Below, one piece after another: positions 7,446-28,952 of a stretch of 64,000 nucleotides of DNA. A program made the translations under genes and the position numbers. The first letter of the stretch is position 1. Each line of letters opens with the position of its first letter. The notes below the pieces were generated by a model. It was given only the letters and a program-made list of their open reading frames with translations. It had not been told where the DNA came from and made no database searches. Source of the DNA: Isurus oxyrinchus (lineage: Eukaryota); NCBI GenBank assembly GCA_026770705.1, contig JANJGN010000150.1, forward strand, positions 124,001 to 188,000. Reading direction: 5' to 3'.

Positions 7446-7906
7446 CAGTGCAGCACTTCCTCAGTACTGACCCTGTGACAGTGCAGCACTCCCCCAGTAC
7501 TGACCCACTGACAGTGCAGCACTCCCTTGGGACTGAATCCAGAGATACAAGGAAGAGACTGAAGAGCTGACGATTCAGCTGAATTTAAAAACAGAGGCAG
7601 TTACAGAATCACAACAAGTTTACAGAGCAGAAGGAGGCCATTCAGCCCCTCGAGCCTGTTACACAGGAACTGGAGCGGCCATTCAGCCCCCTCGAGCCTG
7701 TTACACAGGAACAGGAGGAGGCCCATTCAGCCCCTCGAGACTGTTACACAGGAACAGGAAGAGGCAATTCAACCACATTCTTGACACCAAAGGGGTTACC
7801 AGTTTGCTTACGGTGGAAGACAAAGAGTTGGTTTCTCAAATTCACACAAACCAACTCACATTTTGACTCACAGTGACACATTCACCCTTTCTAATTAAAT
7901 ACACAG

Positions 7907-7991
7907 AGGGAGGAGCACAGGAAGAGGTCATTCAGCCCAAGCAGAGCGTGTGGGCAGTTCCTCCCCAGGCGAGCAGTCGGACAGGTCCTGG
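7907..7991 (+). other. Gene A 5'UTR exon (85-nt module)
   Basis: Ends at strong donor GG|GTAAGT; same module lies ~400-450 nt upstream of the leader exon in genes B and C. Confidence 0.6.
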
Positions 7992-8424
7992 GTAAGTAAC
8001 GGAACGATTGGAATTCACTTCCACCACCAACACCGTCCTTTGTTGATGTTGTGACTTTATAAAGACAGATTCCAATGATTGATGCCTTTGAAAGATTTCT
8101 ACTGATTATTGAGATCTGGGTGTGAGGCTCAAGTCAGTTGTACAGAACATCTTTCTTGCTCAAGGGATGAGGAAAATGGGATGCCCTGAGCTGGTGAAAG
8201 GTGCTATAGAAATGCAAGCCCTTCATTGTTTTTCATTCTTAAAGCCTTTTAACTCTCTGCAGAACACCTATCATCCCACAGGGAATCAAATTAGTCTTTG
8301 AAGTCATTGTCTAAAAGGAGTTCTGATCTCTCGAGATCTGTTGGTCAAGAGGTGAGGTCTCATTAACTCCTTTCTCTTTCAGAGTTTGAGAGTGAGAAGT
8401 GGATGGAATATCTGGGAGTGGACA

Positions 8425-8464
8425 ATGATCGGGAAATCTTACTTCATCCTGTCACTTCTCCAAG
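8425..8464 (+). CDS. Gene A leader exon (MIGKSYFILSLLQ)
   Basis: ATG 8425, phase-1 donor CAAG|GTAATA; joins V exon to give signal peptide MIGKSYFILSLLQVGLS-QEW. Confidence 0.85.
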
Positions 8465-11400
8465 GTAATATCATCATCAGATTTAATGTTAATAGTCTCT
8501 GTAAAGAATCATTCTTATTGAGCTGTGATTGGGAACTGATTCAGCAGTGAGCCAGTGTACAAACTCAGACCAAGTCCCATTCACCCATCACCCCTGTGCT
8601 CACTGATATACACTGACTCCCTGTCTGACAGCAGAATTGGAAGTGATCAGAGATCTCAGAGAGTTGTAGGGACTGGAGGACGTTACAAAGTTCAGCAGAA
8701 TTGTAGCAGCGAGAGCAGGATCTTAAAATTCAGGTGCTGTCAGACGTTGGTCAGTGAGCGATGGGGAGTGATGGGTTGAGTAGAGAAGCAAAGATAAAAA
8801 CTGGGGGATGAAGTCTATCCTGCTGCGAGGTCTCCGATAGCAATGGCCTGAAATTAGTGTCCTTTGCTGCCTTTATTCAAAATTGCACATGAAGACAACA
8901 CAGCAGCTCCTAGAATAGACAGGCTGTTCAGTGTCACACTTCCTGTCCATTCTCACCATGCTAGATACTTCAATAAGGGAGCAAGATAACTGAAAGAGAG
9001 AAGGAAGGTAAAGCTGTCTGTGTGTAAAGCTTTCAAATATTCTGAGATATCATGAGTGTCTCTGATCTGCTGCAGAGTTTAAATTTCACAGAATCTGAAC
9101 ACTTTGCAGCTCAGAGAGAGACCATTGCCTCACTGCCTGAAAGGCCGGTGGAAGCAGATTCAACAGGAACTTTCAGAAGGGGAACTGGATAAATACTTGA
9201 AGGGAAATTTGCAGGGATGTGCGAAAGGTGCTGGAGAGGAATTGGGAAAGAGCCAGCACATGCACGATGGGTCAAATGAGCTCCTCCTGTGTTGTATCAT
9301 TCAACAATCAGACAATTTAAGACCCTTGTCAGCAAAACTTCAGAATCCTGCTGAATCACAGATGTTTCTGAAGGACAGGGAACAAGAGGTTTCTGGTAGC
9401 AGCGTTTCATGTGGGGCCCAGTTCAGTTTGAACAAATAAACAACACCATCTTTGAAAGTCATGAACCCACCACTGCGGCACCTCCGACACATGCAGAGCT
9501 CAGGCTAGAGGCACTTTGTTAGTGTGTTTCACAGTGTCTGCTGGAGTAGGGTCAGTGCTGAGCTTGGGGACAAGTCAGTCTACAATGCTGCATCGGAATC
9601 AACAATACAAAAATATGGGGTTTGGATCAGAAATAATCCCTTAGACAATGAGGATCCAAAGAGATTCCTCAGACAGTGAGGATCCAAAGAGATTCCTTAG
9701 ACAATGAGGGTCCAAAGTGATTCCTTAGACAATGAAGATACAAAGTGCACCAATCAGATTGAACCAGATTAGCTAATCAGCTGTGTTGAAGAGCAGACAG
9801 GAATGTTAGGCTAATTAGTGATTCATGACGGTGATAATGGGGGGAGTTCTGAGGGCTCCTAATCCATTGTCCTGTCTTGTAAATCAGCACTGAATGGATC
9901 TCAATGGGTGGGTCTCGTAGACACTGTTTTGGGTGGAAGACTGGCTTCACTAAGGGGAAGCGGTAGCAGAGAGGTATTGTCACTGGGCTAGTATTCCAGA
10001 GGCCCAGGGTGATGCTCAGGGGCCCTGGGTATGAATCCCATCAAAGCAGATGAATGGGATTAAAAAGCCTGGTTCACTGATCCCCTTCAGGGAAGGAAAT
10101 CTCCACCCTTACCGAGTCTGGCCTACATGTCACTCCAAACCCACAGCAATACAATTGATTCTTAAATGCCTCTGATGGACATGGGATGGGTAATAAATGC
10201 TGGGCACATCCCATGAACGGATAATTTGAAAAACACATGACTTGGAGACACTGTGTTGGGTGGAAGACTGGCTTCACTAAACAGGGTCCTGAGGACCATG
10301 AGCCAATGTAGAATGAACTTGTCCACTCCTGGGTCCAGGATTCTCTTCCATCCATTGTGAAACCTTGGGGAGATCCCTGTGTGTCCTGTAGATGGTCCAC
10401 ACTGCAGCCACTGTGCCCCAGTGATGGAAGGGGTGGATATCGAGTCTAGTGGATCTACAAACCATCCAGAGTTAAATATTGATATTTCTCTCCCCAGTTG
10501 GACTGTCACAAGAGTGGAAAGGTGACACACCACGAGAGGTGACAGCGCAGGAAGATTCGTGTGTACAGATTCCATGTCATTACAGTTATCCATCACATTT
10601 GGAAAGCCAACCACGAGTCGGAGTCTGGTTTAATAATGAGAATCAGATTCCTGGATCTCCCATTGCCTTTCACTCCAAGGATCACAGTCACGAGTTACCA
10701 CGGTTCCACCATCGGACCCGGCTGTCTGGAGACCTGAAAGATGGCGACTGTTCCCTGATTATAAACAACATCAGACGGGAAGATGCAGGACCTTATTTCT
10801 TCAGGATAGAATTTGACAGCAGTAATAGTTACAACTACTATCCTGTAACCCAGCTTCAGGTTTCTGGTAAGTGCTGTGTTATAATTACTCAACAATTCAC
10901 ATTCAACACTCAATGGGAATTAACACAAACTGTGACGTTTACATATTAACACAAAACACAGCTTATTATAACACACTGTCTGATTCTCAATAACCTGCTG
11001 ATAGCTTCCAGTTCAGTCCTAAAGCAACCTCTAATACTCACTTTAATATCAATGATTAAATGTATTGACTGTGTCCATCAAAGTTATCAGGTTATCCACT
11101 CTCATCGATCTCTCTAATCCTGTTTAAAATAATTTCCTGATCATTGTAACCTCTCAGTTCTGATATCATCCTTGCAAAGGTGCTTTCTCTTGTGGGACTG
11201 TGGTTTCTATTTGAACTGATGCTTCACGTTATATTTCTCTAAAAGGATCCATTCTCCGTCTGTTAGATTTCACAGATAAACCCACGATATTCCCTGCTGA
11301 AATTATTGCAGGAAAGCGTGTGGATGTAAGCTGCACCTTCAACACAACGTGCAATGGAACAGCAGCACCTGTCTTAACCTGGGACACTCCCACTGACGTA

Positions 11401-14400
11401 CCTGGATCAGTCTCAAACACTGTAACTCAGCATGGTGTCACTCTGACCTATACTTCTGTTCTGACCCTGATCCCATCACTCAAACACCACAGACACAATC
11501 TCAGCTGCAGAGTGAGATATCCATCTGTTTCATCGGAGCAGACCCTCGTACTAACTGTACAATGTAAGTATGGACATCCTTCATTATACATTCGCTGGAA
11601 CAGTCTATATTGTGCACAGCAGGATCCCATAGAAAGGTATTCTGATGAGAACCAGATCATCTGTAGTTTAGGGAAAAACACTGACCAGAAAACAGTTAAT
11701 GACAGTTTCTGAACATTAACACTGGAGCTTTTTTTTCCAGCCAAGAAGCTGATAGAGCAGAGCATCATTCACAATATACTAACCCCCTGACAGTGCAGCA
11801 CTCCCTCAGTACTGACCGCCTGACAGTGCAGCACTCCCTCAGTACTGACCGCCTGACAGTGCAGCACTCCCTCAGTACTGATCCTCCAACAGTGCAGCAA
11901 TCCCTCAGTACTGACCCTCCAACAGTACAGAACTCCCTCAGCACTGACCCTCTGACAGTGTAGCACTCCCTCAGTACTGACCCTCTGACAGTGCAGCACT
12001 CCCTCAGTACTGACCTGCTGAAATTGCAGCTCTCCCTCAGTACTGACCCTCTGACATTGCAGCACTCCCTCAGTACTGACCCTCTGACAGTGCAGCACTG
12101 CCTCAGTACTGACCCTCCAATAATGAAACAATCCCTCAGTACTGACTCTCCGACAGTGCAGCACTCCTTCACTGCTAACCCTCCAACTCTGCAGTGCTCC
12201 CTCAGGACTGAAAATCCAACATTTCATATCTCCCTCCTGACTGACCCTCTGAAAATACAACAGATCCTCGGTCGAGTCCTTCAAACAGTGCTGCACTTCC
12301 ACAGTACTGAATCTCCCCCCCACCCACAGTGCAGCACTTCCACAGTACTGAACCTCTGACAGTGCAGCACTCCCTCAGTACTGACCCTCCCACCTGCAGC
12401 ACTCCCTCAGTACTGACCCTCCCACATGCAGCACTCCCTCAGTACTGACCCTCCCACATGCAGCATTCCCTCAGTACTGACCCTCCCACATGCAGCACTC
12501 ACTCAGTACTGACCCTCCCACAGTGCAGCACTCCCTCAGTACTGACCATCCCACATGCAGCACTCACTCAGTACTGACCCTCCCACAGTGCAGCATTCCC
12601 TCAGTACTGACCCTCCCACATGCAGCACTCACTCAGTACTGATCCTCCCACAGTGCAGCACTCCCTCAGTACTGACCCTCCCACATGCAGCACTCACTCA
12701 GTACTGACCCTCCCACAGTGCAGCACTCCCTCAGTACTGACCCTCCCACATGCAGCACTCCCTCAGTACTGACCCTTTGACAGTGCTGCACTACCTCACT
12801 ATTGGCTTTAAACTAAATAGTGTGTGGGGCGAATGTTTCTGGAGAGGGTATATGTACAGTTACAAACCAAAAGGATTTATTAGCATTGCAGGATAGCTGT
12901 TTTGGCAATGATACCCAGTGTGTGACAGGAAGGGACACAGTGTCCAAACATAAAAATACATCAGCAAATAGTGTCAGAGGGGGGGAAATGATAAAAAGAC
13001 AAAATTAATGGCTCTTTACTTAAATGCACAATGTATTTGGAATGCTGACCTTTATTTCAAAGGGAATGGAGTATAAAAATAGGGAAGTCTTGCTAAAACT
13101 TTACAAGGCACTAGTTAGACCACACCTAGAATACTGTGAGCAGTTTTGGTTCCCTTATCTAAGGAAAGATGTACTGGCATTGGAGGCAGTCCAGAGAAGG
13201 TTCACTAGGTTGATCCCAGTAATGGAGGGATTTTCATATGAGGAGAGGTTGAGTAGGATGGGCCTGTACTCATTGGAGTTTAGGAGAATGAGAGCTGACC
13301 TTATTGAAACATATAAGATTCTTAGGGCGCTTGACAGGGTAGATGCTGACAGGTTGTTTCCCCCTGTGGGAGAGTCTAGGACCAGAGGGCATAATTTCAG
13401 AGTAAGGGGTCACCCATTTAAGACAGAGATGAGGAGTTTCTTCTCTCAGAGGGTAGTGAATGTGTGGAATTCTTTACTGCAGAGAGCTGCAGAGGCTGGG
13501 TCATTAATTATATTCAAGGCTGAGAGACACAGTTTTTTAATCAGTCAGGGAATCAAAGGCTATGGGGAAGAGGCAGGAAAGTGAAGTTGAGGATTGTCAG
13601 ATCAGCCATGGTGTCATTGAATGGCGGAGCAGAGTTGATTGGCCGAATGGCCTCCTTCTGCTCTGACGTCTTGTGGTCTTATGGTCTTATCACCCTCCAA
13701 CAGTGCAGAGCTCCCTAATTACTGACCCTCCGACAGTGCAGCACTCCCTCAGTACTGACCCTCTGACAGTGCAGCACTCACTCAGTACTGACCCTCCGAC
13801 AGTGCAGCACTCCCTCAGTACTGACCCTCCAACAGTGCAGAGCTCCCTAATTACTGACCCTCCAACAGTGCAGCACTCCCTCAGTACTGACCCTCCGACA
13901 GTGCAGCATTCCCTAAGTACTGACCCTCCGAGAGTGCAGCACTCCCTAAGTACTGACCCTCCAACAGTGCAGCACTGCCTCAATACTGACCCTCCAACAG
14001 TGCAGCACTGCGTCAATACTGACCCTCCAACAGTGCAGCACTCCCTCAGTGCTGACCCTCCGACAGTGCAGCACTCCCTCACTACTGACCCTCCGTCAGA
14101 GCAGAGCTCCTAATTACTGACCCTCCAACAGTGCAGCACTCCCTCAGTACTGACCCTCCAACAGTGCAGCACTCCCTCACTACTGACCCTCTGACCGTGC
14201 AGCACTCCCTAAATACTGACACTCTGACAGTGCAGCACTCCCTCAGTATTGACCCTCCGACAGTGCAGAGCTCCCTCAGTATTGACCCTCCGACAGTGCA
14301 GAGCTCCCTAATTACTGACCCACCGACAGTGCAGCACTCTTTCAGTTCTGACCCTCCGACAGTGCAACACTACCTCAGTACTGACCATCCAACAGTGCAG

Positions 14401-15798
14401 AGCTCCCTAATTACTGACCCTCCGACAGTGCAGCACTCCCTCAGTACTGACCCTCCGACAGTGCAGCACTCCCTCAGTATTGATCCTCCGACAGAGCAAC
14501 ACTACCTCAGTACTGTCCCACCGACAGTGCAGCACTCCCTCAGTACTGATCCTCCAACAGTGCAACTCTCCCTCAGTACTGTCCCACCGACAGTGCAGCT
14601 CTCCCTCAGTACTGACCCTCTGACAGTGCAGAACTCCCTCAGTACTGATCCTCCGACAGTGCAACACTCCCTCAGTACTGTCCCACTGACAGTGTAGCAC
14701 TCCCTCAGTACTGATCCTCCGACAGTTCAACACTCCCTCAGTACTGTCCCACCGACAGTGCAGCTCTCCCTCAGTACTGACCCTCCGACAGTGCAGCACT
14801 CCCTCAGTACTGATCCTCCGACAGTGCAACACTCCCTCAGTACTGTCCCACTGACAGTGTAGCACTCCCTCAGTACTGATCCTCTGACAGTTCAACACTC
14901 CCTCAGTACTGTCCCACCGACAGTGCAGCTCTCCCTCAATACTGACCCTCCAACAGTGCACCACTCCATCAGTACTGAACCTTCAACAGTGCAGCACTCC
15001 CTCAGTACTGATCCTCCAACAGTGCAGCACTCCATCAGTACTGATTCTCCGACAGTGAAGTCCTCGCTCAGTACTGACTATGCGGCAGTGAAGCTTTCAC
15101 AGTACCCACCCACCATCAGTACAGCAGGTCCTCAGTACTCACCCTCCAACAGGGCAGCACTCCCTCAGTACTGACCCTCCAACAGTGCAGCACTCCCTCA
15201 GTACTGAACTGAAGAGTCTGCCTGAATTATGTGCTTTGTGGTGAAGGATTGATATTACACCTTTAACATTGTCAGGGTCTCTGAAAGTGCTTCACAGTCA
15301 ATGTAAGTAACTGATCTTTATTTGTTTTTAGATGCACCACAGAATCTCTCAATTACTTTTCATGATATGATTAACGCTTCATCGATCAATATAATTGAGG
15401 GGAATTCTGCAGTGATAATCTGCTCTGTCGAGAGCTTCCCAGCTTCTAACCTGACGTGGCGACATCTTAATGTCCCAATGAACAGAACAAGTTCCAACAA
15501 TGAGCTGTGGTTGGTGATTCCTCACGTTACATCCAGAGACACTGGAGACTATCAGTGTGTGGCAGAGAATGAACATGGAGCAGTGGAGGGGTTCATAACC
15601 ATCACTGTAGAACGTGAGTTAACACAAATTGCAATAACACTCCTCTCACATGCAGACGCACACACACACACATAGACATACACATGCACACACACTCACT
15701 CATGAACAGATGTATACAAACAGGCACACGCACACATGCGCAAACACATACACACACACACACGCACAAACAAACACACTCACATGTGCAGAAACACG

Positions 15799-15843
<45 letters not shown>

Positions 15844-18800
15844 ACACACACACACATGTGTGAGGTTCACTCTCCTCTCTCAGGGCTGCACTGGAGTCTC
15901 GGTGTCAGCCCTGAATCTGTGTTGAAGGAAGGTAAACTCCAGATCAACAAGACCCTGAATTGGATGAGCAACCTCCTGAACAGTGAATTGTAGATTTACC
16001 CCTCAGTGCTCCATCAATCAAATACAATTCATTGCCTGTCAAGCCCTTGGCGAATTCCTGAGGATGTGAATGGAACTTTCTTTCATTCTAGATTGACAGC
16101 ACCTCAACTGGTGGGGGAATGCAACTGCAGTGTGACAGTTTACATAGGCAGTGTCCATTATAAATGTGACAGAGGAACTTATTCTGAGGAAAGGTGCCTG
16201 GAAATGCATTCAGACATCAGATACAAAGAGATGATACATGGAGTCTTGCTGTGCACTGTGCTTGCTCACTCTAAAATCTTTATATGTTTATAGGCGCACC
16301 ACAGAATCTCTCATTTACTTCGCTTGAAATGATTAATGCTTCATCGATCAATATAATTGAGGGGAATTCTGCAGTGATAATCTGCTCTGTCGAGAGCTTC
16401 CCAGCTTCTAACCTGACGTGGCGACATCTTAATGTCCCAATGAACAGAACAAGTTCCAACAATGAGCTGTGGTTGGTGATTCCTCACGTTACATCCAGGG
16501 ACACTGGAGACTATCAGTGTGTGGCAGAGAATGAACATGGAGCAGTGGAGGGGTTCATAACCATCACTGTGGAACATTAGTTACACAGAATTCAACATTC
16601 TGTTTTTATTAGCTCATGGGATGTGGGTAGTGTTGACAAGACCAGAAATCATTGCCCATCTGTAACTGCCCCTTGAGAAGGTGGTGGTGAGCTGCCTTCT
16701 TTAACCACTGCAGTCCATGTGGTGTACGCACACCCACAGTGCTGTTAGGGTGGGAGTTCCAGGATTTTGACCCAACGACGGTGAAGGAATGGCCGATATA
16801 GTTCCAAGTCCCAGGGCAGACCACCACCTCATGTTCACCTCCAAGTCACACACCACACTGACTAGGAACTGTCTCGGTGGAAGAGGTTAAGGGTTTGGAA
16901 GGTGCTGTCGAAGGAGCCTTTGTGAGTTGCTGCAGTGCATCTTGTAGATGGTGCACACTGCTGCCACTGTGTGCCAGTGGTGGAGGGTATGAATGTTTAT
17001 GCTGGTGGATGGGCTGTCGATCAAACAAGCTGCTCCTGGATGGTGTCGAGCTTCTTGAGTGTTGTTGGAGCTGCACTCATCCAGCCAAGTGGAGATTATT
17101 CCATCAGACTCCTGACTTGTGCCTTGTCGATGGTGGACAGGCTTTGGGGAGTCAGGAGGTGAGTTATTCACCGCAGAGTTCCCAGCCTCTTACCCGCATT
17201 TGTAGCCACATTATTTCCTGTTGCCGGGCTGTTGCCAGGGCCAATAGCCTTTGCTGTATCCAGTATCATCAGCTGATTCCTGATGTCACGTGGAGTCAAT
17301 CGAATTGTCTGAAAGCTGACATCTGTGATGCTGGGACCCTCTGGAGGAGGCCGAGATGGAGCATCCACTCAGCACTTCTGGCTGAACATGGTTGCCAATG
17401 CTTCAGCCTTGTCGTTTGCACTGATGTGCTGAGCTCCCCCATCATTAAGGATGGGGATATTTGTGGAACATCCTCCTCCTGTTAGATCTTTAATTGTCCA
17501 TCACCATTCATGACTGGATGTGGCAGGACTGCAGAGCTTAGATCTGACCCGTTGGTTGTGGGATCGCTTTGCTCTGTCTATAGCATGTTGTTTCCGCTGT
17601 TTGGTGTGTATGTAGTCCTGTGTGTCACCTCAGCAGCTTGGCACCTCTGTTATATGTGAATCCTCCTTATAGAAACCTGCATGTACATGGATATTATCAA
17701 TAAATATTACATAGATAAATGTTGTTTGTATAGACCTTTCATGCATAGACAATATCACTTCACAAGTTCAGAATTACTACATGTACATAGGGAACCATTC
17801 TCAAACTGTACCGGAGTCATTCATTGGCTGATTTTACAGGGCGAGATTCCAATGAATGGAAAGCAGGATTGCTTGGACCGGGAATCTGTTTGAGTGTTGG
17901 ACTGAGTGGATTCTTCATCTTCAATTGTGTGAGAAAGTAAGTGTGAAGCTTTAATTGGTTGTTTTTGAACATGTTTTCTTCAAACTTCTCTCCTTATAGA
18001 AAGAACTTGCATTTCTATAACACCTTTTAGAATCGAAAACCCTTCACAGCCCCTGAAGAGCTTTGATGTTCACTCATTGTTTAACATCTCATCCAACACT
18101 CAATGTTTCACAATTCAGTCCTGTAACAGGCAGTGTTGACCTGGACCATAAAATACCTTGTGACTTCCTGAGGATGTGAAAGGGGATATATAAATGAAGA
18201 CATTTCTTTTGTTAGTGAATGCAATCTCTTTCCATTTTCAGTGTCTAACTCACTCTCTCTTACCTCCACTAATGCTCTCCTTCTCATTCTCTCTCTCTCT
18301 CATTCACTCTCTCCCCAATCTCCACTAATGCTCTCCTTCTCATTCTCTCTCTCTCTCATTCACTCTCTCCCCAATCTCCACTAATGCTCTCCTTCTCATT
18401 CTCTCTCTCTCTCATTCACTCTCTCTCCAATTTCCACTAATGCTCTACTTCTCATTCTTTCTCTCGTCCTCTTACACAATGTTCAGTATCTCACATTTTT
18501 AAGGAGCGCTGAGCAACATCTGCTCCTTCAGAAGATCCACCTCAACACCTGGAGCAAGCAGTGAATTGAAACTCGCTCACCAACTGCTCAGCTTTACACA
18601 GGAATCACGTCACAGAGTCAGGACACAAAGGGTTAACAGTTTGCTTACAACACAACACTAAGGCCCTACGTTTCAGTGAAAGGGTTTTCACAATTGTTCC
18701 CCAATTCCTCATTTTGTCTCACAGAGACACATCAACCCTTTCTCATTAAATACACAGAGGGAGCAGCACAGGAAGAGGTCATTCAGCCCAGTCAGAGCGT

Positions 18801-20544
18801 GTGGGCAGTTCCTCCCCAGGCGAGCAGTCGGACAGGTACTGGGTAAGTAACGGAACGATTGGAATTCACTTCCACCACCAACACCGTCCTTTGTTGATGT
18901 TGTGACTTTATAAAGACAGATTCCAATGATTGATGCCTTTGAAAGATTTCTATTGATTATTGAGATCTGGGTGTGAGGCTCAGGTCTGTTGTACAGAACA
19001 TCTTTCTGGGTAAATTGTGCAGACAGGTTACACACAGTCTACAATTATATTCCCTCGGGTCTAGAAGATTAAGGAGTGATCTAACTGAGGGGTTCAAAAT
19101 GATTAAACACTCGATAGGGTCGATAGAGAGAAGCTATTCCCATGGGTGGGGGTGGTTGGTGGGGGTCGGGTGGAGTCCAGAACAAGGGGGCTGGAACTTC
19201 AGATTGGAGCCAGGCCGTTCAGGGGTGATGTCAGGAAGCACATCTTCACACAAAGGGGAGTGGAAATCTGGAACTTTCTCCCCAATAATCAAACCCAACA
19301 CCGAATACACATCATGTTGATTGTCACTCTGTCCATTTCCATCTCTATTACAGAAGAGAGGCGAGGGGAAAGCAGGAATCAAAACGAACCACCGTGTTGA
19401 TGAATATCGAGGTCCTGTTTATGAAAACTGTGAGCGTGGTTGGGCTTTGAGGAATCAGGTGAGTCACACACCACAGGATCCCCAGCCTCTCAGCTGCTCC
19501 AGTAGCCTGGTTATTGATATGGCTGCTCCAGTCCTGTATCTGCAATGTTTTATACAGTCACTCCCAAACCCAACCAAACTCACACCCAACACCATTCAGA
19601 ATCAATAATCAAACCCCGTTCAGTATCAATAATCAAACCCCGTTCAGAATCAATAATCAAACCCCGTTCAGTATCAATAATCAAACCCCATTCAGAATCA
19701 ATAATCAAACCCCGATCAGAATCAATAATCAAACCCCGTTCAGAATCAATAATCAAACCCCGTTCAGTATCAATAATCAAACCCCGTTCAGAATCAATAA
19801 TCAAACCCCGTTCAGAATCAATAATCAAACACTGTTCAGAATCAATAATCAAACCCCGTTCAGAATCAATAATCAAACACCGTTCAGAATCAATAATCAA
19901 ACACCGTTCTGTATCAATAATCAAACCCCGTTCAGAATCAATAATCAAAACCCATTCAGTTTCAATAATCAAACCCCGTTCAGTATCAATAATCAAACCC
20001 CGTTCAGAATCAATTATCGAACCCTGTTCAGTTTCAATAATCAAACCCCGTTCAGAATCAATAATCAAACCCCGTTCAGAATCAATTATCAAAACCTGTT
20101 CAGAATCAATAATCAAACTCCGTTCAGAATCAATAATCAAACCCCGTTCAGAATCAATTATCAAAACCTGTTCAGAATCAATAATCAAACTTCGTTCAGA
20201 ATCAATAATCAAACCCCGTTCAGAATCAATAATCAAACCCCGTTCAGAATCAATAATCAAACTCCGTTCACTATCAATAATCAAACCCCGTTCAGTATCA
20301 ATAATCAAACCCTGTTCAGTATCAATAATTAATGTATCTATTGTGGGTGGAATTTTCGATTTGGATCAATAATACTAAACACTGATCACTCTGATTGTCA
20401 CTCTGATCATTTCTGTTTCTATTACAGAAGAAAGATGAGAAGGATCTGGAAATGAAATCTAACCGCGGAGTCAGTCCTGATACAGATGATGATCTTTACG
20501 CAAACTGTGATTTTGCCAAGGATTCTGTTTATGGGAATTTATAA
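8425..20544 (+). CDS. Siglec-like gene A (spliced CDS). Membrane form join(8425-8464,10498-10866,11267-11563,15332-15613,17840-17936,18758-18842,19354-19458,20428-20544), 463 aa; alternative secreted form ends in exon 16294-16580, 424 aa
   Basis: All junctions are AG/GT with compatible phases (1,1,1,1,2,0,0). V domain has Siglec hallmarks (SCVQIPC, DCSL, YFFRIE); C2 domains, TM and a Tyr-motif tail follow. Confidence 0.85.
9954..10245 (+). mobile_element. tRNA-derived SINE with 35-bp flanking duplication
   Basis: tRNA-like head; flanked by AGACACTGTkTTGGGTGGAAGACTGGCTTCACTAA at 9919-9953 and 10246-10280; absent from paralogous introns of B and C. Confidence 0.75.
10498..10866 (+). CDS. Gene A V-set sialic-acid-binding domain exon
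   Basis: 369 nt, ctccccAG|...TCTG|GTAAGT; [28 protein letters not shown] with essential Arg (AGG 10803-10805). Confidence 0.95.
11267..11563 (+). CDS. Gene A C2-set domain 1 exon
   Basis: 297 nt; [10 protein letters not shown]...VSCTFNTTC...LTW...SVLTLIP...LSCRV; extra Cys (TTC) typical of the Siglec V-C2 interdomain bond. Confidence 0.95.
11785..12800 (+). repeat. 33-bp tandem array (CAGTACTGACCCTCCGACAGTGCAGCACTCCCT)n
   Basis: Head-to-tail units without spacers; same family at ~5100-5345, 7440-7530, 23430-23705, 30143-30595, 37105-37335. Confidence 0.95.
13027..13690 (+). mobile_element. CR1-type LINE 3' fragment (RT C-terminus plus 3'UTR)
   Basis: LYKALVRPHLEYC...VQRRFTRLIP...SYEERL...DLIETYKIL...RTRGH...FFSQRVVNVWNSL. 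Confidence 0.92.
13690..15210 (+). repeat. 33-bp tandem array
   Basis: About 45 units of the same repeat. Confidence 0.95.
15332..15613 (+). CDS. Gene A C2/I-set domain 2 exon
   Basis: 282 nt; YAPQNL...ICSVESFPASNLTW...DTGDYQCVAENEHG; tttttAG| acceptor, |GTGAGT donor. Confidence 0.93.
16294..16580 (+). CDS. Gene A duplicated C2 exon, donor lost, ends in in-frame TAG (terminal exon of a putative secreted isoform)
   Basis: Near-identical to 15332-15613; intact acceptor tttatAG|; end reads GAA CAT TAG instead of GAA C|GTGAG. Confidence 0.75.
16600..17650 (-). mobile_element. CR1/L2-group LINE fragment (antisense)
   Basis: Decayed AQVRS.MEYSPLGWMSAAPTTLKKLDTIQ motif and tail, shared with 32090-32410 and 43130-44190. 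Confidence 0.8.
17699..17704 (+). terminator. Candidate intronic poly(A) signal for the secreted isoform
   Basis: First AATAAA I find after the 16580 stop, and it lies before the TM exon. Confidence 0.35.
17840..17936 (+). CDS. Gene A transmembrane exon (RRDSNEWKAGLLGPGICLSVGLSGFFIFNCVRK)
   Basis: 97 nt, ttttacAG|...GAGAAA|GTAAGT; same length, phases and homology as gene C TM exon 47934-48030. Confidence 0.85.
18265..18460 (+). repeat. ~56-bp CT-rich tandem repeat, about 3.5 copies
   Basis: CTCCACTAATGCTCTCCTTCTCATTCTCTC... repeated. Confidence 0.85.
18758..18842 (+). CDS. Gene A cytoplasmic exon 1 (KGSSTGRGHSAQSERVGSSSPGEQSDRYW), a copy of the 5'UTR-exon module
   Basis: 85 nt, open, phase 2 to 0, exactly bridging TM exon and next exon; acacAG| acceptor, |GTAAGT donor. 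Confidence 0.6.
19354..19458 (+). CDS. Gene A cytoplasmic exon 2 (KRGEGKAGIKTNHRVDEYRGPVYENCERGWALRNQ)
   Basis: 105 nt, ctattacAG|...CAG|GTGAGT; VYEN motif. Confidence 0.75.
19590..20330 (+). repeat. 24-bp minisatellite (TTCAGAATCAATAATCAAACCCCG)n, about 30 copies
   Basis: 8-aa periodic ORFs on both strands. Confidence 0.97.
20428..20544 (+). CDS. Gene A last coding exon (KKDEKDLEMKSNRGVSPDTDDDLYANCDFAKDSVYGNL*)
   Basis: ctattacAG| acceptor; LYANC and C-terminal ITIM-consensus SVYGNL; TAA 20542-20544; AATAAA at 21316 and 21484. Confidence 0.78.
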   Translation, partial: KKDEKDLEMKSNRGVSPDTDDDLYANCDFAKDSVYGNL

Positions 20545-21658
20545 ACTGAGCAAGAATGAGACACACACAGTGTGGGGAGAATACAGAACGGGAGAATCAT
20601 TCAAAACTCCAATTTACCTTCCTAATATCCACAGGAACTCACTCCCAGGAAATAGATTTAAACCTCTTGTTACAAACTGATGGAATTTCTTTGGAATGAT
20701 CTATCCAGGATGATTGTCTGTGGGTTTCAATTCGAACATCCTCCTTCAGAATTGTCCCTCACTGTTGGAAACATCCTTCTCTCCATTCTGATTGTAAATG
20801 TCTTTAGATATCGTTCGATGATGTACCAGGACAGAACGGACAAATTCAATCCCGTGTCCGTGATTGAGTTAATTTTCATTCTGTTATTCACCTTCCTGTC
20901 TGTCAGTGTTTACAGAATATTCATCAGCCAGTGTAGACTTCAGGAAATGCAGGATCGGTGGATAATTGGACCAGAGGAGATAGGCAAAATTTGCACACCA
21001 TTTTGTAGTCAAATGTATTTTCAGATATATATTTGGATTTTCCACTTCATCGTTAAACAGCAAAACAAACAAGAATCTGGGAAACAGGGAAACAATTTGT
21101 TTGGAGATTTGAGAAATTCTCTGCAGCTCAGAGGATAACAGATGTGCTACAGTGCCACCACTGGTAGGAGGACATCATTTCAGCGTGACATGTTTACATT
21201 CATGTTGCCAATGAACATTGAAAACTATGATGTGAAAAATTGTTTGCAGGTTTATCTTCTTCAGTATGTCATGGATGGATGAGACAGCTTTGATAACAGA
21301 ATGAGATATAGCTGCAATAAACCACCATTTTAGTCTTTCACACTTGGAGAGTACAATGAGCATCCATCCTGAAGGCTGAGTGGATGGGTGGACTTTGCGA
21401 TGTGTTACAGATTACAGAGACCAACATACTTGATCCTGGTTCCGCTCTGTGTTTGATGAGATACTTGATTCAAAGATTGGGAAAATAAATAATCCTCCTG
21501 CATTGATCTGTAACTGGTCATTTTCTCTGTTAATGAGGTGAGGACAGATTTGGGTTCGAGGTCCAAAATCAGACACATGCTTTGACTGCCCATTGACTCG
21601 GAACAGGAGGAGGCCATTCAGCCCCCTCGAGCCTGCTACACAGGAACAAGAGGGCACC

Positions 21659-23110: not shown

Positions 23111-25271
23111 ATGCTCCTAATGTACTCGAGCCTGGTACACAGGAACTGGGGAAGGCCAATTCAGCCCCTTTAGCCTTTTACACAGGAACAGGAGGAGGCC
23201 CATTCAGCCCCTCGAGCCTATAACACAGGAACAGGAGGAGGCCCATTCAGCCCACTCAAGCCTGTTACACAGGAACAGGAGGAGGCCCATTCAGCCCAAG
23301 CAGAGCGTGTGGGCAGTTCCTGTCCAGACGAGCAGTCGGACAGGTCCCGGGTAAGTAATGGATCGATTGGAAATCACGGGGGAAGTTCTGAGGGCTCCTA
23401 ATCCATTGTCCTGTCTTCTAAATCAGCACCTTAATACTGACCCTTCAACAGTGCGGTACTCCCTCAGTACTGATCCTCCAACAGTGCAGCACTCCCTGAT
23501 TAATGTCCCTCTGACAGTGCAGCACTCCCACAGTACTGACCCTCCAACAGTGCAGCACTCCCTGATAAATGTCCCTCTGACAGTGCAGCACTCCCTCAGT
23601 ACTGACCCTCAAACAGTGGAGATCTCCCTCAGTACTGACCTTACAATAGTGCAACACTCGCTCAGTAATGACCATCCGACAGTGCAGCACTCCCTCAGTA
23701 CTGACACTGGGGAGTTTCAGTCTACTCTGTGGGGCAGACGTCCCATGAATGGGGTCTTGAATCCCACAACGTTCTGACCCCCTGAATTTGGCTGTGAAAC
23801 CCACTGACCCACAGGAGAAACTCCTGGTCAATGACTGTCCTGTCCACCTCTGAGCAGAAATATCACCACAGGGTCAGGACACAAACGGTTAACAGTTCAC
23901 CAACATCTCAAAACAAGAGCTGCTCTGTCACTTTGATCCAACTTCCTCATTTTGTCTCACAGAGACACATCAACCCTTTCTCATTAAATACACAGAGGGA
24001 GCAGCACAGGAAGAGGTCATTCAGCTCAAGCAGAGCGTGTGGGCAGTTCCTCCCCAGGCGAGCAGTCGGACAGGTCCTGGGTAAGTAACGGAACGATTGG
24101 AATTCACTTCCACCACCAACACCGTCCTTTGTTGTTGTTGTGACTTTATAAAGACAGATTCCAATGATTGATGCCTTTGAAAGATTTTTACTGATAATTG
24201 AGATCTGGTGTGAGGCTCAAGTCTGTTATACAGAACATCTTTCTAGCTCAAGGGATGAGGGAAGTGCAGAGACATGAGATTTGGGATGCCCTGAGGTAGT
24301 GAAAGGTGCTATGGAAATGCAAATCCTTCATTGTTTGTCTTTCTTACAGCCTTGTAACTCTCTGCAGAGCACCTATCATCCCACAGAGAATCAAATTATT
24401 CTGTGAAGACATTGTCTAAAAGCAGTTCTGATCTCTCGAGAGCTGTCGGACAAGAGGTGAGGTCTCATTAACTCCTTTCTCTTTCACAGCTTGAGAGTGA
24501 GATGTGGATGGAATATCTGGGAGTGGACGATGATCGGGAAATCTACTTCCTCTTGTCACTTTCCCAAGGTAATATCATCATCAGCTCAGACAGATTTATG
24601 TTTAACAGTCTTTGTAAAAGATCATTCTTATCTCTTAATCTCTGTAACCTTCTGCAACTCAACCAAACAACGTCCCAGATCTCTGTGTTACTCCAATTCC
24701 GGCCACTTGACCATCCCCCGATTCCCATCACTCCAATACTGGCGGCCGGGCCTACAGCTGCCTGGGGCCTGAGCTCTGGAATTCACTCCCTAAACCTCGG
24801 GGATGGAGGAGCTCAGAGGGTTTCATTTTACTGAGAATCACCACGACCACATCACAGCTGCAGTCAGAATAGACAGAGAGTCCAGCCCTCACACTTCCTG
24901 CACAGTTTCACCATAGCAACCACAATATGGAAATTTTAAAATACTGAAAGTTAAACTGAAGCTCAAACCAGTCAGTGTAGAGAGATGAGATGTTTACACA
25001 GTTTCCCTGTGTATCTTGTAGACACTGTGTTGGGTGGAAGACTGGCTTCACTAAACAGGGTCCTGAGGACCATGAGCCAATGTAGAATGAACTTGTCCAC
25101 TCCTGTGTCCAGGATTCTCTTCCCTCCGTTGTGAAACCTTGGGGGGTTCTTTGTGTGTCCTGTAGATGGTCCACACTGCAGCCACTGTGCCCCAGTGATG
25201 GAGGGGGTGGATATCAAGTCTAGTGGATCTACAAACCTTCCAGAGTTAAATATTGATATTTCTCTCCCCAG

Positions 25272-25647
25272 TTGGACTGTCACAAGAGTGGAAAGGCGAC
25301 ACTCCACGAGAGGTGACAGCGCAGGAAGGTTCGTGTGTACAGATTCCATGTCATTACAGTTATCCAGCACATTTCATAGGGAGATCACGTGTTGGAATCT
25401 GGTTGAAAGGAATAGATGGGAACCCACAGCCTAAATGGTCTATAGCCTTTCATTCCGAGGGTCACAGTCACAGGGATCAAAGATTCCGCCATCGTACCCG
25501 GCTGTCTGGAGACCTGAAAGATGGCGACTGTTCCCTGATTATAAACAAAATCAGACGGGAAGATGCAGGACCTTATTTTTTTCAGAATATAATTTGACAA
25601 CAGGAATAGATACAACTATTATCCTGTAACCCGGCTTCATGTTTCTG
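25272..25647 (+). pseudogene. Gene B V-set exon, disabled at the essential Arg
   Basis: 376 nt; T7 run at 25576-25582 (T6 in gene C paralogs) shifts frame just before AGA; the corrected frame still hits TAA at 25590-25592 (GAA in paralogs). Confidence 0.9.
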
Positions 25648-26122
25648 GTAAGTGCTGTGTTATAATTACTCAACAATTCACATTCAACACTCAATGGGAA
25701 ATAACACAAACTGTGACGTTTACAAATTAACACAAAACACAGCTTATTATAACACACTGTCTGATTCTCAATAACCTGGTGATAGCTTCCAGTTCAGTCC
25801 GAAAGTAACCTCTAATACTCACTTTAATATCAATGATGAAAAGCATTAACTGTATTATCAGGTTATCCACTCCCATCAATCTCTCCTGTCCTGTTTAAAA
25901 GTCTGACGTATCGATAAAAGAAAGATGTGCATTTCTGCAGCGCAATTTACCACCTCAGGAGGATCCAAATCCCTTCACAGCCAATGAAATTATTCCTGAA
26001 TTGTCGTCACAGATGTTAAACACAGCAGGCAGTTTGTGCACAGCAAGATCCAACAAACCACAAGGTGATAAATCACCCAGATCACTGAGGAAATGAGAAG
26101 CCAGTGAACTCAAACCTCTGGT

Positions 26123-26153
26123 CTGATGAAGAGTCATACGGACTCGAAACGTT
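26123..26153 (+). ncRNA. Minimal hammerhead ribozyme motif in a Penelope-derived insertion (~26127-26254)
   Basis: CTGATGA-A-GAGTC-ATACG-GACTC-GAAAC-GTT: both core boxes, 5-bp helix II, palindromic AACGTT helix III; helix I weak. Confidence 0.55.
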
Positions 26154-26506
26154 AACCCTGTCTTCCTCTCCACTGATACTGTCAGACCTGCTGAGTCTTT
26201 CCAGCAATTTTTGTTTTTGTTTCAGATTTCCAGCATCCGCAGTATTCTGCTTTTAACTCCAATCTCTGGTCTGAGCCTCTTCTCTCATCCAGTGTTCTCA
26301 ATTCACATGTCTCGGAGTGAACGTGTATTAAGCTGAGAGACAGAAACACTACTGCCAAAGAGCAAGAAAATCTTTCCTGATCATTGTAACCTCTCAGTTC
26401 TGATATCATCCTTGTAAAAGTGCTTTCTCTTGTGGGACTGTGATTTCTATTTGAACTGATGCTTCACGTTATATTTCTCTAAAAGGATCCATTCTCTGTC
26501 TGTTAG

Positions 26507-26803
26507 ATTTCACAGATAAACCCACGATATTCCCTGCTGAAATTATTGCAGGAAAGCGTGTGGATGTAAGCTGCACCTTCAACACAACGTGCAATGGAAC
26601 AGCAGCACCTGTCTTAACCTGGGACACTCCCACTGACGTACGTGGATCAGTCTCAAACACTGTAACTCAGCATGGTGTCACTCTGACCTATACTTCTGTT
26701 CTGACCCTGATCCCATCACTCAAACACCACGGACACACTCTCAGCTGCAGAGTGAGATATCCATCTGTTTCATCGGAGCGGACCCTCGTACTGACTGTGC
26801 AAT
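26507..26803 (+). pseudogene. Gene B C2-set exon 1 (open frame)
   Basis: 297 nt, nearly identical to 11267-11563 and 50786-51082. Confidence 0.9.
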
Positions 26804-27129
26804 GTAAGTACCGTCATCCTTCATTCTACATCAGCAATCCCTCAGCGCTGACCCTCTGACAGTGCAGCCCATTCTCAGTATCCACATTCTAAGGCCTCTC
26901 TAAGTGCTTCACAGTCGATAGAAGTTAATTGATATTTATTTGATTATTGCTGAATGAAGAGACAAGCTGTCTAAAGTTTTCATCTCACAGACAGTATTCT
27001 CCATGGCAACACCTCCACCTATCAGAGACCACTTGCCAACCAATCAGCACTCTCTTCCCATTAAGTATAAATTGTTGTTCACTTTCTGTTGGTTATCGTG
27101 CGAACGGGCTTCTTGATTCCTGCCCTGAG

Positions 27130-27277
27130 ATCTTAATGTCCCAAAATTCAGAACAAGTTCCAACAATGAGCTGTGGTTGGTGATTCCTCACGTTACATCC
27201 AGGGACATGGACACTATCAATGTGTTCAGAGAATGAACATGGAGCAGTGGAGGGGTTCATAACCATCACTGTGGAAC
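27130..27277 (+). pseudogene. Gene B C2 exon 2 remnant (3' half only)
   Basis: Homologous to the 3' half of 15332-15613 with indels; 5' half replaced by unrelated sequence ~26948-27129. Confidence 0.85.
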
Positions 27278-28952
27278 GTGAGTGTACACAGACTTCAACA
27301 TCTCTCTCAGATTCGAACACTACACAAACGCCCTCAAACATACAGACCTAAATAGACACGTGTAGACACACATATATGACCACACACAAAGACACACTCA
27401 CAAACAAACACACTAGCACAAGACTCCCTCATGGGTTACCTGACCTCCCTCAGTACTGCACTGGAGAGTGGGCTGCATTCTGGGATTTGTGTTCCCATTC
27501 GTATTTATGGAAGAATATGGAAATTACTCGTACAAACACTCAGATGCATAGAGGCACTCGTAGATACTATCTGCTTCTCCAACTCTCTCTCTCTCCCTTT
27601 AAGGAGCTACCTGAAACCTAACCCTTTGACGAAGAACTAGTCCCAACTCCTCCTTATCTGATTCTGTGATTTCTTTTGTGTATCTGAGAGTAAAAGAGAG
27701 GTGAAGAGGTTTAGTACGAGAATTCTTGCTGGTGAAAAGCTTACATCTTGTTCTCATTATTTCCGTGCACATATTTCCCAGTATGTCCAATGCCCCTGTT
27801 TATAATGATGACTGCCTATGTAAACGTCACGCTGTAGTTACAGCCTCCCACCAGTGGTGGCATTGTAGCACTTAATCCTTGTGTTTCCCAGCTTTTCAAG
27901 CAACTCCACTTCCCAGTTTGCTACACAAGCTGTGAGTTCATCAGAATTAAATTATTTCTCAAACAGTAGATTTGATAACTCATTTTATTGAAAACTTCTT
28001 CAGTGCCTCCCTGAAGGGTTTACACTCTCCGGGAAGCAGGAATAGGCTGGATGTTGGGGAGTTCATCTTTTCCCAGAGAGTAGGGATCCTCAGGAATGTG
28101 CTGTCAGTGGGTGTGGTGGTTGCTGATTCTCTGTCACCTTCAAGAGGGATCTGGAGTGGTTACTGACTGGGGGAGAGATCATGGAAGCGGAGAATGATAC
28201 AGCACAGGAGGAGGCCATTCAGCCCATTGAGCCTGTGCCAGGTCTTTCAATGTTCTATCCAATCAGATCCACTAACCACCACTCCACCTTGCCCCCATCT
28301 TCCTCCTTCAAGTGTTTATCCAATTTCCCTTTTGAAAGTTCCTATTGAATCTGCTTCTACCGCCCTTTCAGGCAGCACCTTCCAGATCACAACAACTCAC
28401 TCTGTCAAAACAAATTCTCCTCATCTCCCCCTCCGGTTCATCAATCTGTTTCCCTCTGGTTACCGACCCTCCTGCCCCTTAAATACATCAATACTGTTCA
28501 CCTCAACCACTCCCAGTGGGAGCGAGTTCCACATTCTCCCCTCTCTCTGGGTAAAGATTGGAACTGTTTATTAAGCGGGGGGTGTAAGTCCATGGGGGAG
28601 TCCATCTCGATCCTGCCCGATTCGCACACGCGTCCGAGATGGATTTCCACCCTGCACTAAACGTTTCCAGAATTTTCTACAGCACAATCCTGTACACAGC
28701 GATGGAGAGAAACACTGGACAGGGAGTCCAACAGCACAATGATCCATTCTCACCAATGTTCCACGCTAAGGGGAAAGTTCCGATTGTCCACTCTTAGAGT
28801 GTTTCCAATGAAAACATTCATTCCACATTGAATCCCAGTGGATGGGTCAATATTACAGCAAATGTTGCAGTGATATGAAGCTTGATTGTTCAGCCAGAGT
28901 GAGAGATTGAAAGCGGAGAGTCAGTGATGATTTCTTTCTGTGTGTTCTCTAG

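Follow-up and report, generated by a model that had tools for sequence, protein, structure and literature searches.

A repeated C2 exon with a lost splice donor in a Siglec-like gene of a lamniform shark: probable skipping and a doubtful soluble product

Can one Siglec-like gene of a shark encode both a membrane receptor and a soluble product, when one of its immunoglobulin exons has a stop codon in place of its splice donor? This question is raised by gene A of the window analysed here (one stretch of 64,000 nucleotides), for which the original prediction proposed a receptor and a soluble lectin or decoy by a logic analogous to secreted and membrane Ig heavy chain.

Gene A and the cluster in which it lies

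Several Siglec-like genes lie clustered in the window, which belongs to a lamniform shark; the closest named proteins in a protein search came from Carcharodon carcharias and Cetorhinus maximus. Gene A, on the + strand, begins with a leader (signal peptide) exon (8425-8464) with an ATG and a GT donor, the peptide of which is identical to the N-termini of P0010 and P0069. It continues with a Siglec-type V-set exon (10498-10866; Pfam V-set and Ig_CD22), a first C2-set exon, C2a (11267-11563, by domain match), and two repeat-type C2 exons, namely C2b (15332-15613, by sequence and domain match), with an intact GT donor, and C2c (16294-16575), which is of the membrane-proximal type and has a dead donor. 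The transmembrane (TM) exon (17840-17936) is intact; its position follows from homologues and from RNA run X15, in which joints enter and leave it. Then follow a first cytoplasmic exon of 85 nt (18758-18842, phase 2-0), with the same peptide found after the TM in P0025, P0028 and P0122, a second cytoplasmic exon with a Tyr motif (19354-19458, by homologues), and a terminal exon read from the sequence (20428-21340, end approximate), with two Tyr motifs, the stop at 20542-20544, the 3' UTR and an AATAAA at 21316. Two other assignments, 18758-18842 as a copied 5' UTR exon and 18532-18616 as an alternative 85-nt cytoplasmic exon, were ruled out because homologues translate 18758-18842 after the TM.

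Siglecs carry extra cysteines in the V-set and first C2 domains, and gene A has Cys 35/40/98 in the V-set and Cys 159/165/217 in the first C2 domain, its CVQIPC being aligned with CVLVPC of Siglec-5 in the PDB match. The F-strand Arg of the V domain is kept (YFFR aligned to YFFR of Siglec-5, the best PDB match, E 3.5e-15), and the 17 best PDB matches are all Siglecs. The 463-aa model has the Siglec architecture, with a C2-set stalk, a type I TM and three cytoplasmic Tyr motifs, the last of which presumably fits the ITIM consensus. By these tests gene A is a Siglec-like receptor gene, for which sialic-acid binding would at most be predicted. As regards its annotation, no protein with 100% identity to C2c was present among the 119 matches (best 98%), and no window-encoded protein among the 43 cluster members listed, in 10 clusters.

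The other members of the cluster are diverse. Gene B (24530-27300) looks like a pseudogene: its leader has a one-base deletion, its V exon is frameshifted near 25580, and its C2 exon is a relic, truncated at the 5' side and short of one base at two sites, although the GT donor is kept. Gene C (48028-45380, - strand) has a TM unlike that of gene A and the tail motifs LLYANI and TEYAQI, also unlike those of gene A, and between C2a and TM we saw no C2 exon of the repeat type, in a stretch that includes six N-masked runs (49088-50632). Also on the - strand, one leader (61119), two V exons (56531-56160 and 52177-51812) and a single C2a (51080-50787) form either a V-V-C2 gene or a gene with alternative V exons; in the V exon at 56531, Gly replaces the essential Arg. 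Protein models with 2-7 tandem V domains are P0026 (20 cluster members), P0080 and P0091. The segment 18697-19007, which holds the first cytoplasmic exon, has 96%-identical copies at 7859-8156, 23938-24244 and 61714-61405, just upstream of three leader exons. These copies are likely duplication breakpoints and a likely cause of fused models (e.g., P0071, P0029, P0122).

The lost donor of C2c and the intron behind it

C2c is an exon of 282 nt (phase 1-1) with an AG acceptor and an open frame, which differs from C2b at 10 of 282 nt (96% identity), with 89 of 93 amino acids identical. While C2b ends at 15613 in GAAC/GTGAG, C2c ends at 16575 in GAAC/ATTAG, so the former donor (16576-16580) now reads CAT TAG, with an in-frame TAG at 16578-16580 and with the +1 change at a CpG. 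The relic C2 exon of gene B still has the donor GAAC/GTGAG. The sequence features of the original prediction were thus reproduced, i.e., a duplicate C2 exon that keeps its acceptor and frame but has turned GAA C/GTGAG into GAA CAT TAG, and an AATAAA at 17699 ahead of the intact TM exon. Its two products were recovered as well: skipping of C2c (15613 to 17840) is in frame and gives a 463-aa V-C2-C2-TM receptor that includes the 85-nt exon, while the leader-V-C2a-C2b-C2c reading gives an anchorless V-C2-C2-C2 protein of 424 aa, which ends in ITITVEH and has no hydrophobic segment. If both C2b and C2c were used, gene A would encode 557 aa. The 424-aa form has a one-residue tail after the exon end, no tailpiece, and 10 Cys, which we take to fit the domain disulfides. 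Within C2c, we found no convincing in-frame cryptic donor that could rescue the C2c-TM join (no phase-compatible GT above 5/9).

The differences between C2b and C2c are clustered, with 8 of 10 in the first 44 nt and only 2, both silent, in the last 238 (Fisher p = 7e-6), and therefore the exon core has likely been homogenised or constrained across copies. Because this core is near-identical across copies, the intact frame of C2c is no argument for selection on a soluble product. Such similarity also raises the suspicion that ATTAG is an assembly or haplotype-collapse error within multi-copy, 96%-identical exons, and that the real gene is the 557-aa receptor. We consider this extremely unlikely, as the change consists of two separate substitutions followed by locus-unique intron sequence, and locus-specific DNA contigs from organism A, a close relative, stay close to the downstream intron (17230-17383, with 0 letters differing from the window).

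Most of the C2c-TM intron is made up of antisense fragments of a high-copy repeat (16640-17650, - strand, edges approximate; 75-86% matches elsewhere in the window), which we take to be LINE-like, and DNA depth is very high over 16670-17629. The repeat holds a consensus-like cryptic donor, GAG/GTGAGT (17156-17164), whose GT is at 17159 and which comes closer to the consensus than any other site of the intron (8/9). Its use would create a stop-bearing internal exon of 865 nt with the stop 578 nt ahead of the junction. It can be proposed that the C2c acceptor is often used and that this donor, or intron retention, then sends the transcripts to NMD, leaving a hypomorphic allele. An internal exon of 865 nt is, however, poorly defined, and no 17158-to-17840 joint is present among the 15 of 498 joints listed for the relative's RNA. 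Although the use of an alternative 5' site is the second commonest outcome of donor loss in the available part of a human survey (PMC6071634), we regard this fate of C2c as unlikely.

Beyond the repeat lies a candidate intronic poly(A) signal (17682-17729), read from the letters as TGTA at 17682-17685, AATAAA at 17699-17704 and a GT-rich run at 17720-17729. The hexamer is the sole A(A/T)TAAA of the 1264-nt intron and lies 1.1 kb beyond the C2c stop, past about 1 kb of antisense repeat. By count it is not above chance: AATAAA occurs 28 times on the + strand of the window (62,400 non-N bases), which gives P(>=1 in 1.26 kb) = 0.43, and the other introns of gene A contain six further A(A/T)TAAA. 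Were it used at an appreciable and approximately constant rate, C2c would serve as an alternative terminal exon of 1.4 kb with polyadenylation at 17699, and a 424-aa soluble Siglec would be secreted beside the 463-aa receptor. A terminal exon would escape NMD, and the acceptor, frame and Ig domain of C2c are intact, although the intactness of a core so alike in all copies is uninformative. The anatomy of the signal agrees with such use, as does the hexamer, which is unchanged in organism A DNA, but an unchanged 6-mer is expected between close relatives. In the portion available of one study of human intronic polyadenylation, the TM is removed in 220 isoforms of 175 genes (PMC5928244). On the other hand, apart from the chance-level hexamer, the 1.15-kb 3' UTR would consist mostly of antisense repeat with a strong competing cryptic donor at 17159, and the C2b-to-C2c junction of gene A (expected to appear as 16575 back to 16294) is absent among the 15 of 498 X15 joints listed.

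Relatives, read contigs and the fate of C2c

The protein search with C2c gave 119 proteins from 151 candidates, and all named ones are from sharks or rays. Since 118 of these 119 homologues have from 1 to 10 copies of the C2 domain, gaining and losing C2 exons in tandem is characteristic of the family. The exon can be described as a tandem cassette of near-identical copies that forms a stalk of variable length across sharks and rays (P0001-P0118; in the window 15332-15613 and 16294-16575). In 38 lamniform proteins with 38 distinct C2 junctions, 37 junctions lead to an Ig domain or the TM, one leads to an intron and 0 end at the exon boundary, and in the NLSF subtype, to which C2c belongs, 7/7 splice onward (5 to TM and 2 to C2). 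The last, TM-joined C2 of the white-shark protein P0122 is identical to C2c at 90 of 93 amino acids. The basking shark has an isoform X1 (P0028) of 557 aa and an isoform X3 (P0069) of 463 aa without the second C2, the latter being identical to the skipped product of the window at 413 of 463 positions without gaps; the white-shark and basking-shark isoforms are automated gene models. Because the matching exon is spliced onward to the TM in relatives, the stop of C2c looks like a recent donor loss in an exon array of variable copy number, and C2c is likely an old membrane-proximal exon whose donor was lost in this lineage or allele.

Ten TM-less models among the 119 (P0004, P0030, P0038, P0054, P0061, P0090, P0103, P0114, P0115 and P0116) end 2-18 residues past C2. 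None of them is lamniform (they come from other sharks, skates and rays), and six end in VECE. Either such Siglec-like proteins are really secreted or the models are truncated; in one Amblyraja gene, both listed isoforms (P0054, P0124) are TM-less after C2. As gene models, TM-less Siglec-like proteins recur in elasmobranchs by what would be plain read-through of a donor. These models count in favour of a polyadenylated terminal C2c exon, a reading which, with all of its points considered, we find possible but doubtful.

A more ambitious proposal is that the stop was selected and that skipping versus terminal use of C2c is a regulated receptor/decoy switch like that of secreted and membrane Ig. 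Two changes within three bases give donor loss together with an immediate stop, and the geometry is that of teleost IgM, the membrane form of which goes from Cmu3 to TM (PMC3141427, as far as its available part states). However, the stop is not common to the white-shark and basking-shark proteins (0/38 junctions), and since the intron heads of the paralogues also differ at several positions near the donor, two hits there are unremarkable. The 424-aa form also lacks a tailpiece, and its 10 Cys presumably all belong to domain disulfides. We find a selected switch very unlikely.

Read data from relatives were taken from 4 of 24 listed runs, in the form of contigs throughout, for the region 15870-18250 only, and at most 0.53 of the sampled window words were found per run. 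As this region omits C2b, reads of C2b and C2c overlap in it. At 17878 and 17880, all three organism-A runs have letters other than those of the window, so they are not of the window's haplotype. In the RNA run X15 of organism A, a contig joins the C2 exon end to the TM exon (16575 to 17840), which fits C2b or C2c alike, and three C2-to-C2 joins each have letters that differ from the window. X15 contigs also lie within the C2c-TM intron (17151-17360, 17362-17467 and 17518-17727), but both neighbouring introns are covered too, so pre-mRNA or DNA explains them equally, and contigs do not reveal where a transcript ends. The intron, with its repeat insertion and hexamer, is present in organism A as well, whose X4 DNA contig 17552-17877 keeps the hexamer unchanged and has a single differing letter, at 17724. 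The donor site lies within the X5 contig 16560-16692, which has 8 differences from the window, of which 5 are listed (16623-16650); for organisms A and B together, 40 of 110 differences from the window are listed, and the donor letters fall outside those listed.

RNA run X15 has a coverage gap where a 3' end is predicted, as the depth-532 contig 17518-17727 stops 23 nt past the AATAAA and nothing else covers 17710-17789 (bin mean 119.7 = 532 x 18/80), while coverage by the DNA runs X4 and X5 is continuous there. We did not count this as evidence, because it comes from one study, where two are required for even a weak hint, with filtered records and another haplotype, and DNA run X6 also leaves the bin uncovered. 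In a separate X15 contig, the TM end at 17936 is joined directly to 19354, so the 85-nt exon is skipped. In the window, this skip would shift the frame and give a 393-aa receptor without any of the three Tyr motifs, whose stop lies 8 nt ahead of the last junction, with NMD escape likely; it is possibly a non-signalling membrane isoform.

For gene A itself, the explanation that we favour, with confidence only somewhat above even, is that the C2c donor was lost recently (in the lineage or the allele) and that C2c is probably skipped in most transcripts, so that the V-C2-C2-TM receptor of 463 aa would lack one domain relative to the 557-aa form of relatives. A CpG transition at +1 would have killed the donor and a second change, at +3, would have created the stop, and the donorless C2c, no longer defined as an exon, would be skipped. 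As the skip is in frame and the receptor becomes one repeat shorter, inside the normal range of the family, the loss would be tolerated; a stalk length that already varies from 1 to 10 repeats may have made this easy. Secretion of the 424-aa product through polyadenylation at 17699 would then be a minor leak at most. This explanation draws support from the copy number in the family, the junctions of relatives, the 557/463-aa isoform pair, the donor of gene B, the chance-level hexamer and the C2-TM joint of X15. Human donor disruption points in the same direction, with exon skipping as the most frequent outcome and the alternative 5' site as the second, in a survey whose available part leaves intronic polyadenylation unscored (PMC6071634). 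Against skipping it has to be counted that the C2c acceptor looks usable and that C2c is free of coding damage.

Known systems and what the lost donor may mean

Siglec-like receptors of elasmobranchs (annotated as MAG-like or SIGLEC10-, 13-like; e.g., Cetorhinus P0028 and P0069 and Carcharodon P0122 and P0025) agree with gene A in their leader, V, C2, TM and cytoplasmic exons, and the 463-aa skipped form is annotated there too. Unlike in gene A, where the donor is dead, the last of their C2 exons continues into the TM (557 aa). Soluble human Siglec-14 arises by retention of intron 5 and has a hexapeptide tail (PMC8787094, available part), so there, too, a Siglec becomes soluble when the transcript continues into an intron and soon meets a stop. 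That soluble form is demonstrated, functional and produced by alternative retention, whereas gene A has a mutated donor and a one-residue tail and is known from its DNA letters. In soluble PD-L1 (CD274-L2A), the donor after an Ig exon is left unused and the transcript ends in a LINE-bearing intron without the TM (PMC6877088). There, the poly(A) signal comes from the L2A element, and both forms include the exon. By contrast, the repeat of gene A is antisense, the hexamer lies just past it, and skipping of the exon is required for the membrane form.

The secreted form of teleost IgM keeps Cmu4. The membrane form consists of Cmu1-3 and TM with no Cmu4, while in IgM of mammals and cartilaginous fish a cryptic site inside Cmu4 is joined to TM1 (PMC3141427, available part). 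The Ig heavy-chain analogy of the original prediction therefore keeps its teleost geometry but fails for the mammalian and cartilaginous-fish type, in which a working donor competes with a poly(A) site; in gene A this donor is destroyed. An in-frame stop and a poly(A) signal do lie upstream of the TM exon (TAG 16578, AATAAA 17699, the latter at chance level). The teleost pattern is lineage-wide with a secretory tail, while gene A has one residue for a tail, and 0/38 lamniform junctions end at the exon boundary. As for the wider claim of a receptor and a soluble product from one gene, the coding capacity for both is there, but nothing indicates that the soluble form is made, regulated or selected. 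It seems to us very unlikely that the final repeat of the stalk became a dedicated secretory exon through a recent donor-to-stop change specific to this lineage, with an inhibitory receptor and a longer soluble sialic-acid decoy as the two outcomes of a teleost-IgM-like switch that arose independently.

By analogy, a soluble form of gene A, if it exists, would be of a known kind, namely an intronic-polyadenylation isoform that loses the TM (as in Siglec-14, CD274-L2A and the teleost IgM geometry), and as a mechanism it has precedents in Siglec-14, PD-L1 and teleost IgM. In the literature searched, which covered few subscription journals and included the available part of PMC8455134, we found no description of soluble Siglecs or of the C2 exon array in cartilaginous fish. 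A real soluble transcript would accordingly be a soluble Siglec in cartilaginous fish and a dated example of how a decoy originates from a receptor, and if the switch were true, it would be a teleost-IgM-like switch in an innate receptor, caught at birth. The likely reading is ordinary turnover in a fast-evolving immune gene cluster, in which the loss of a donor silences one repeat exon and shortens the receptor by a domain.
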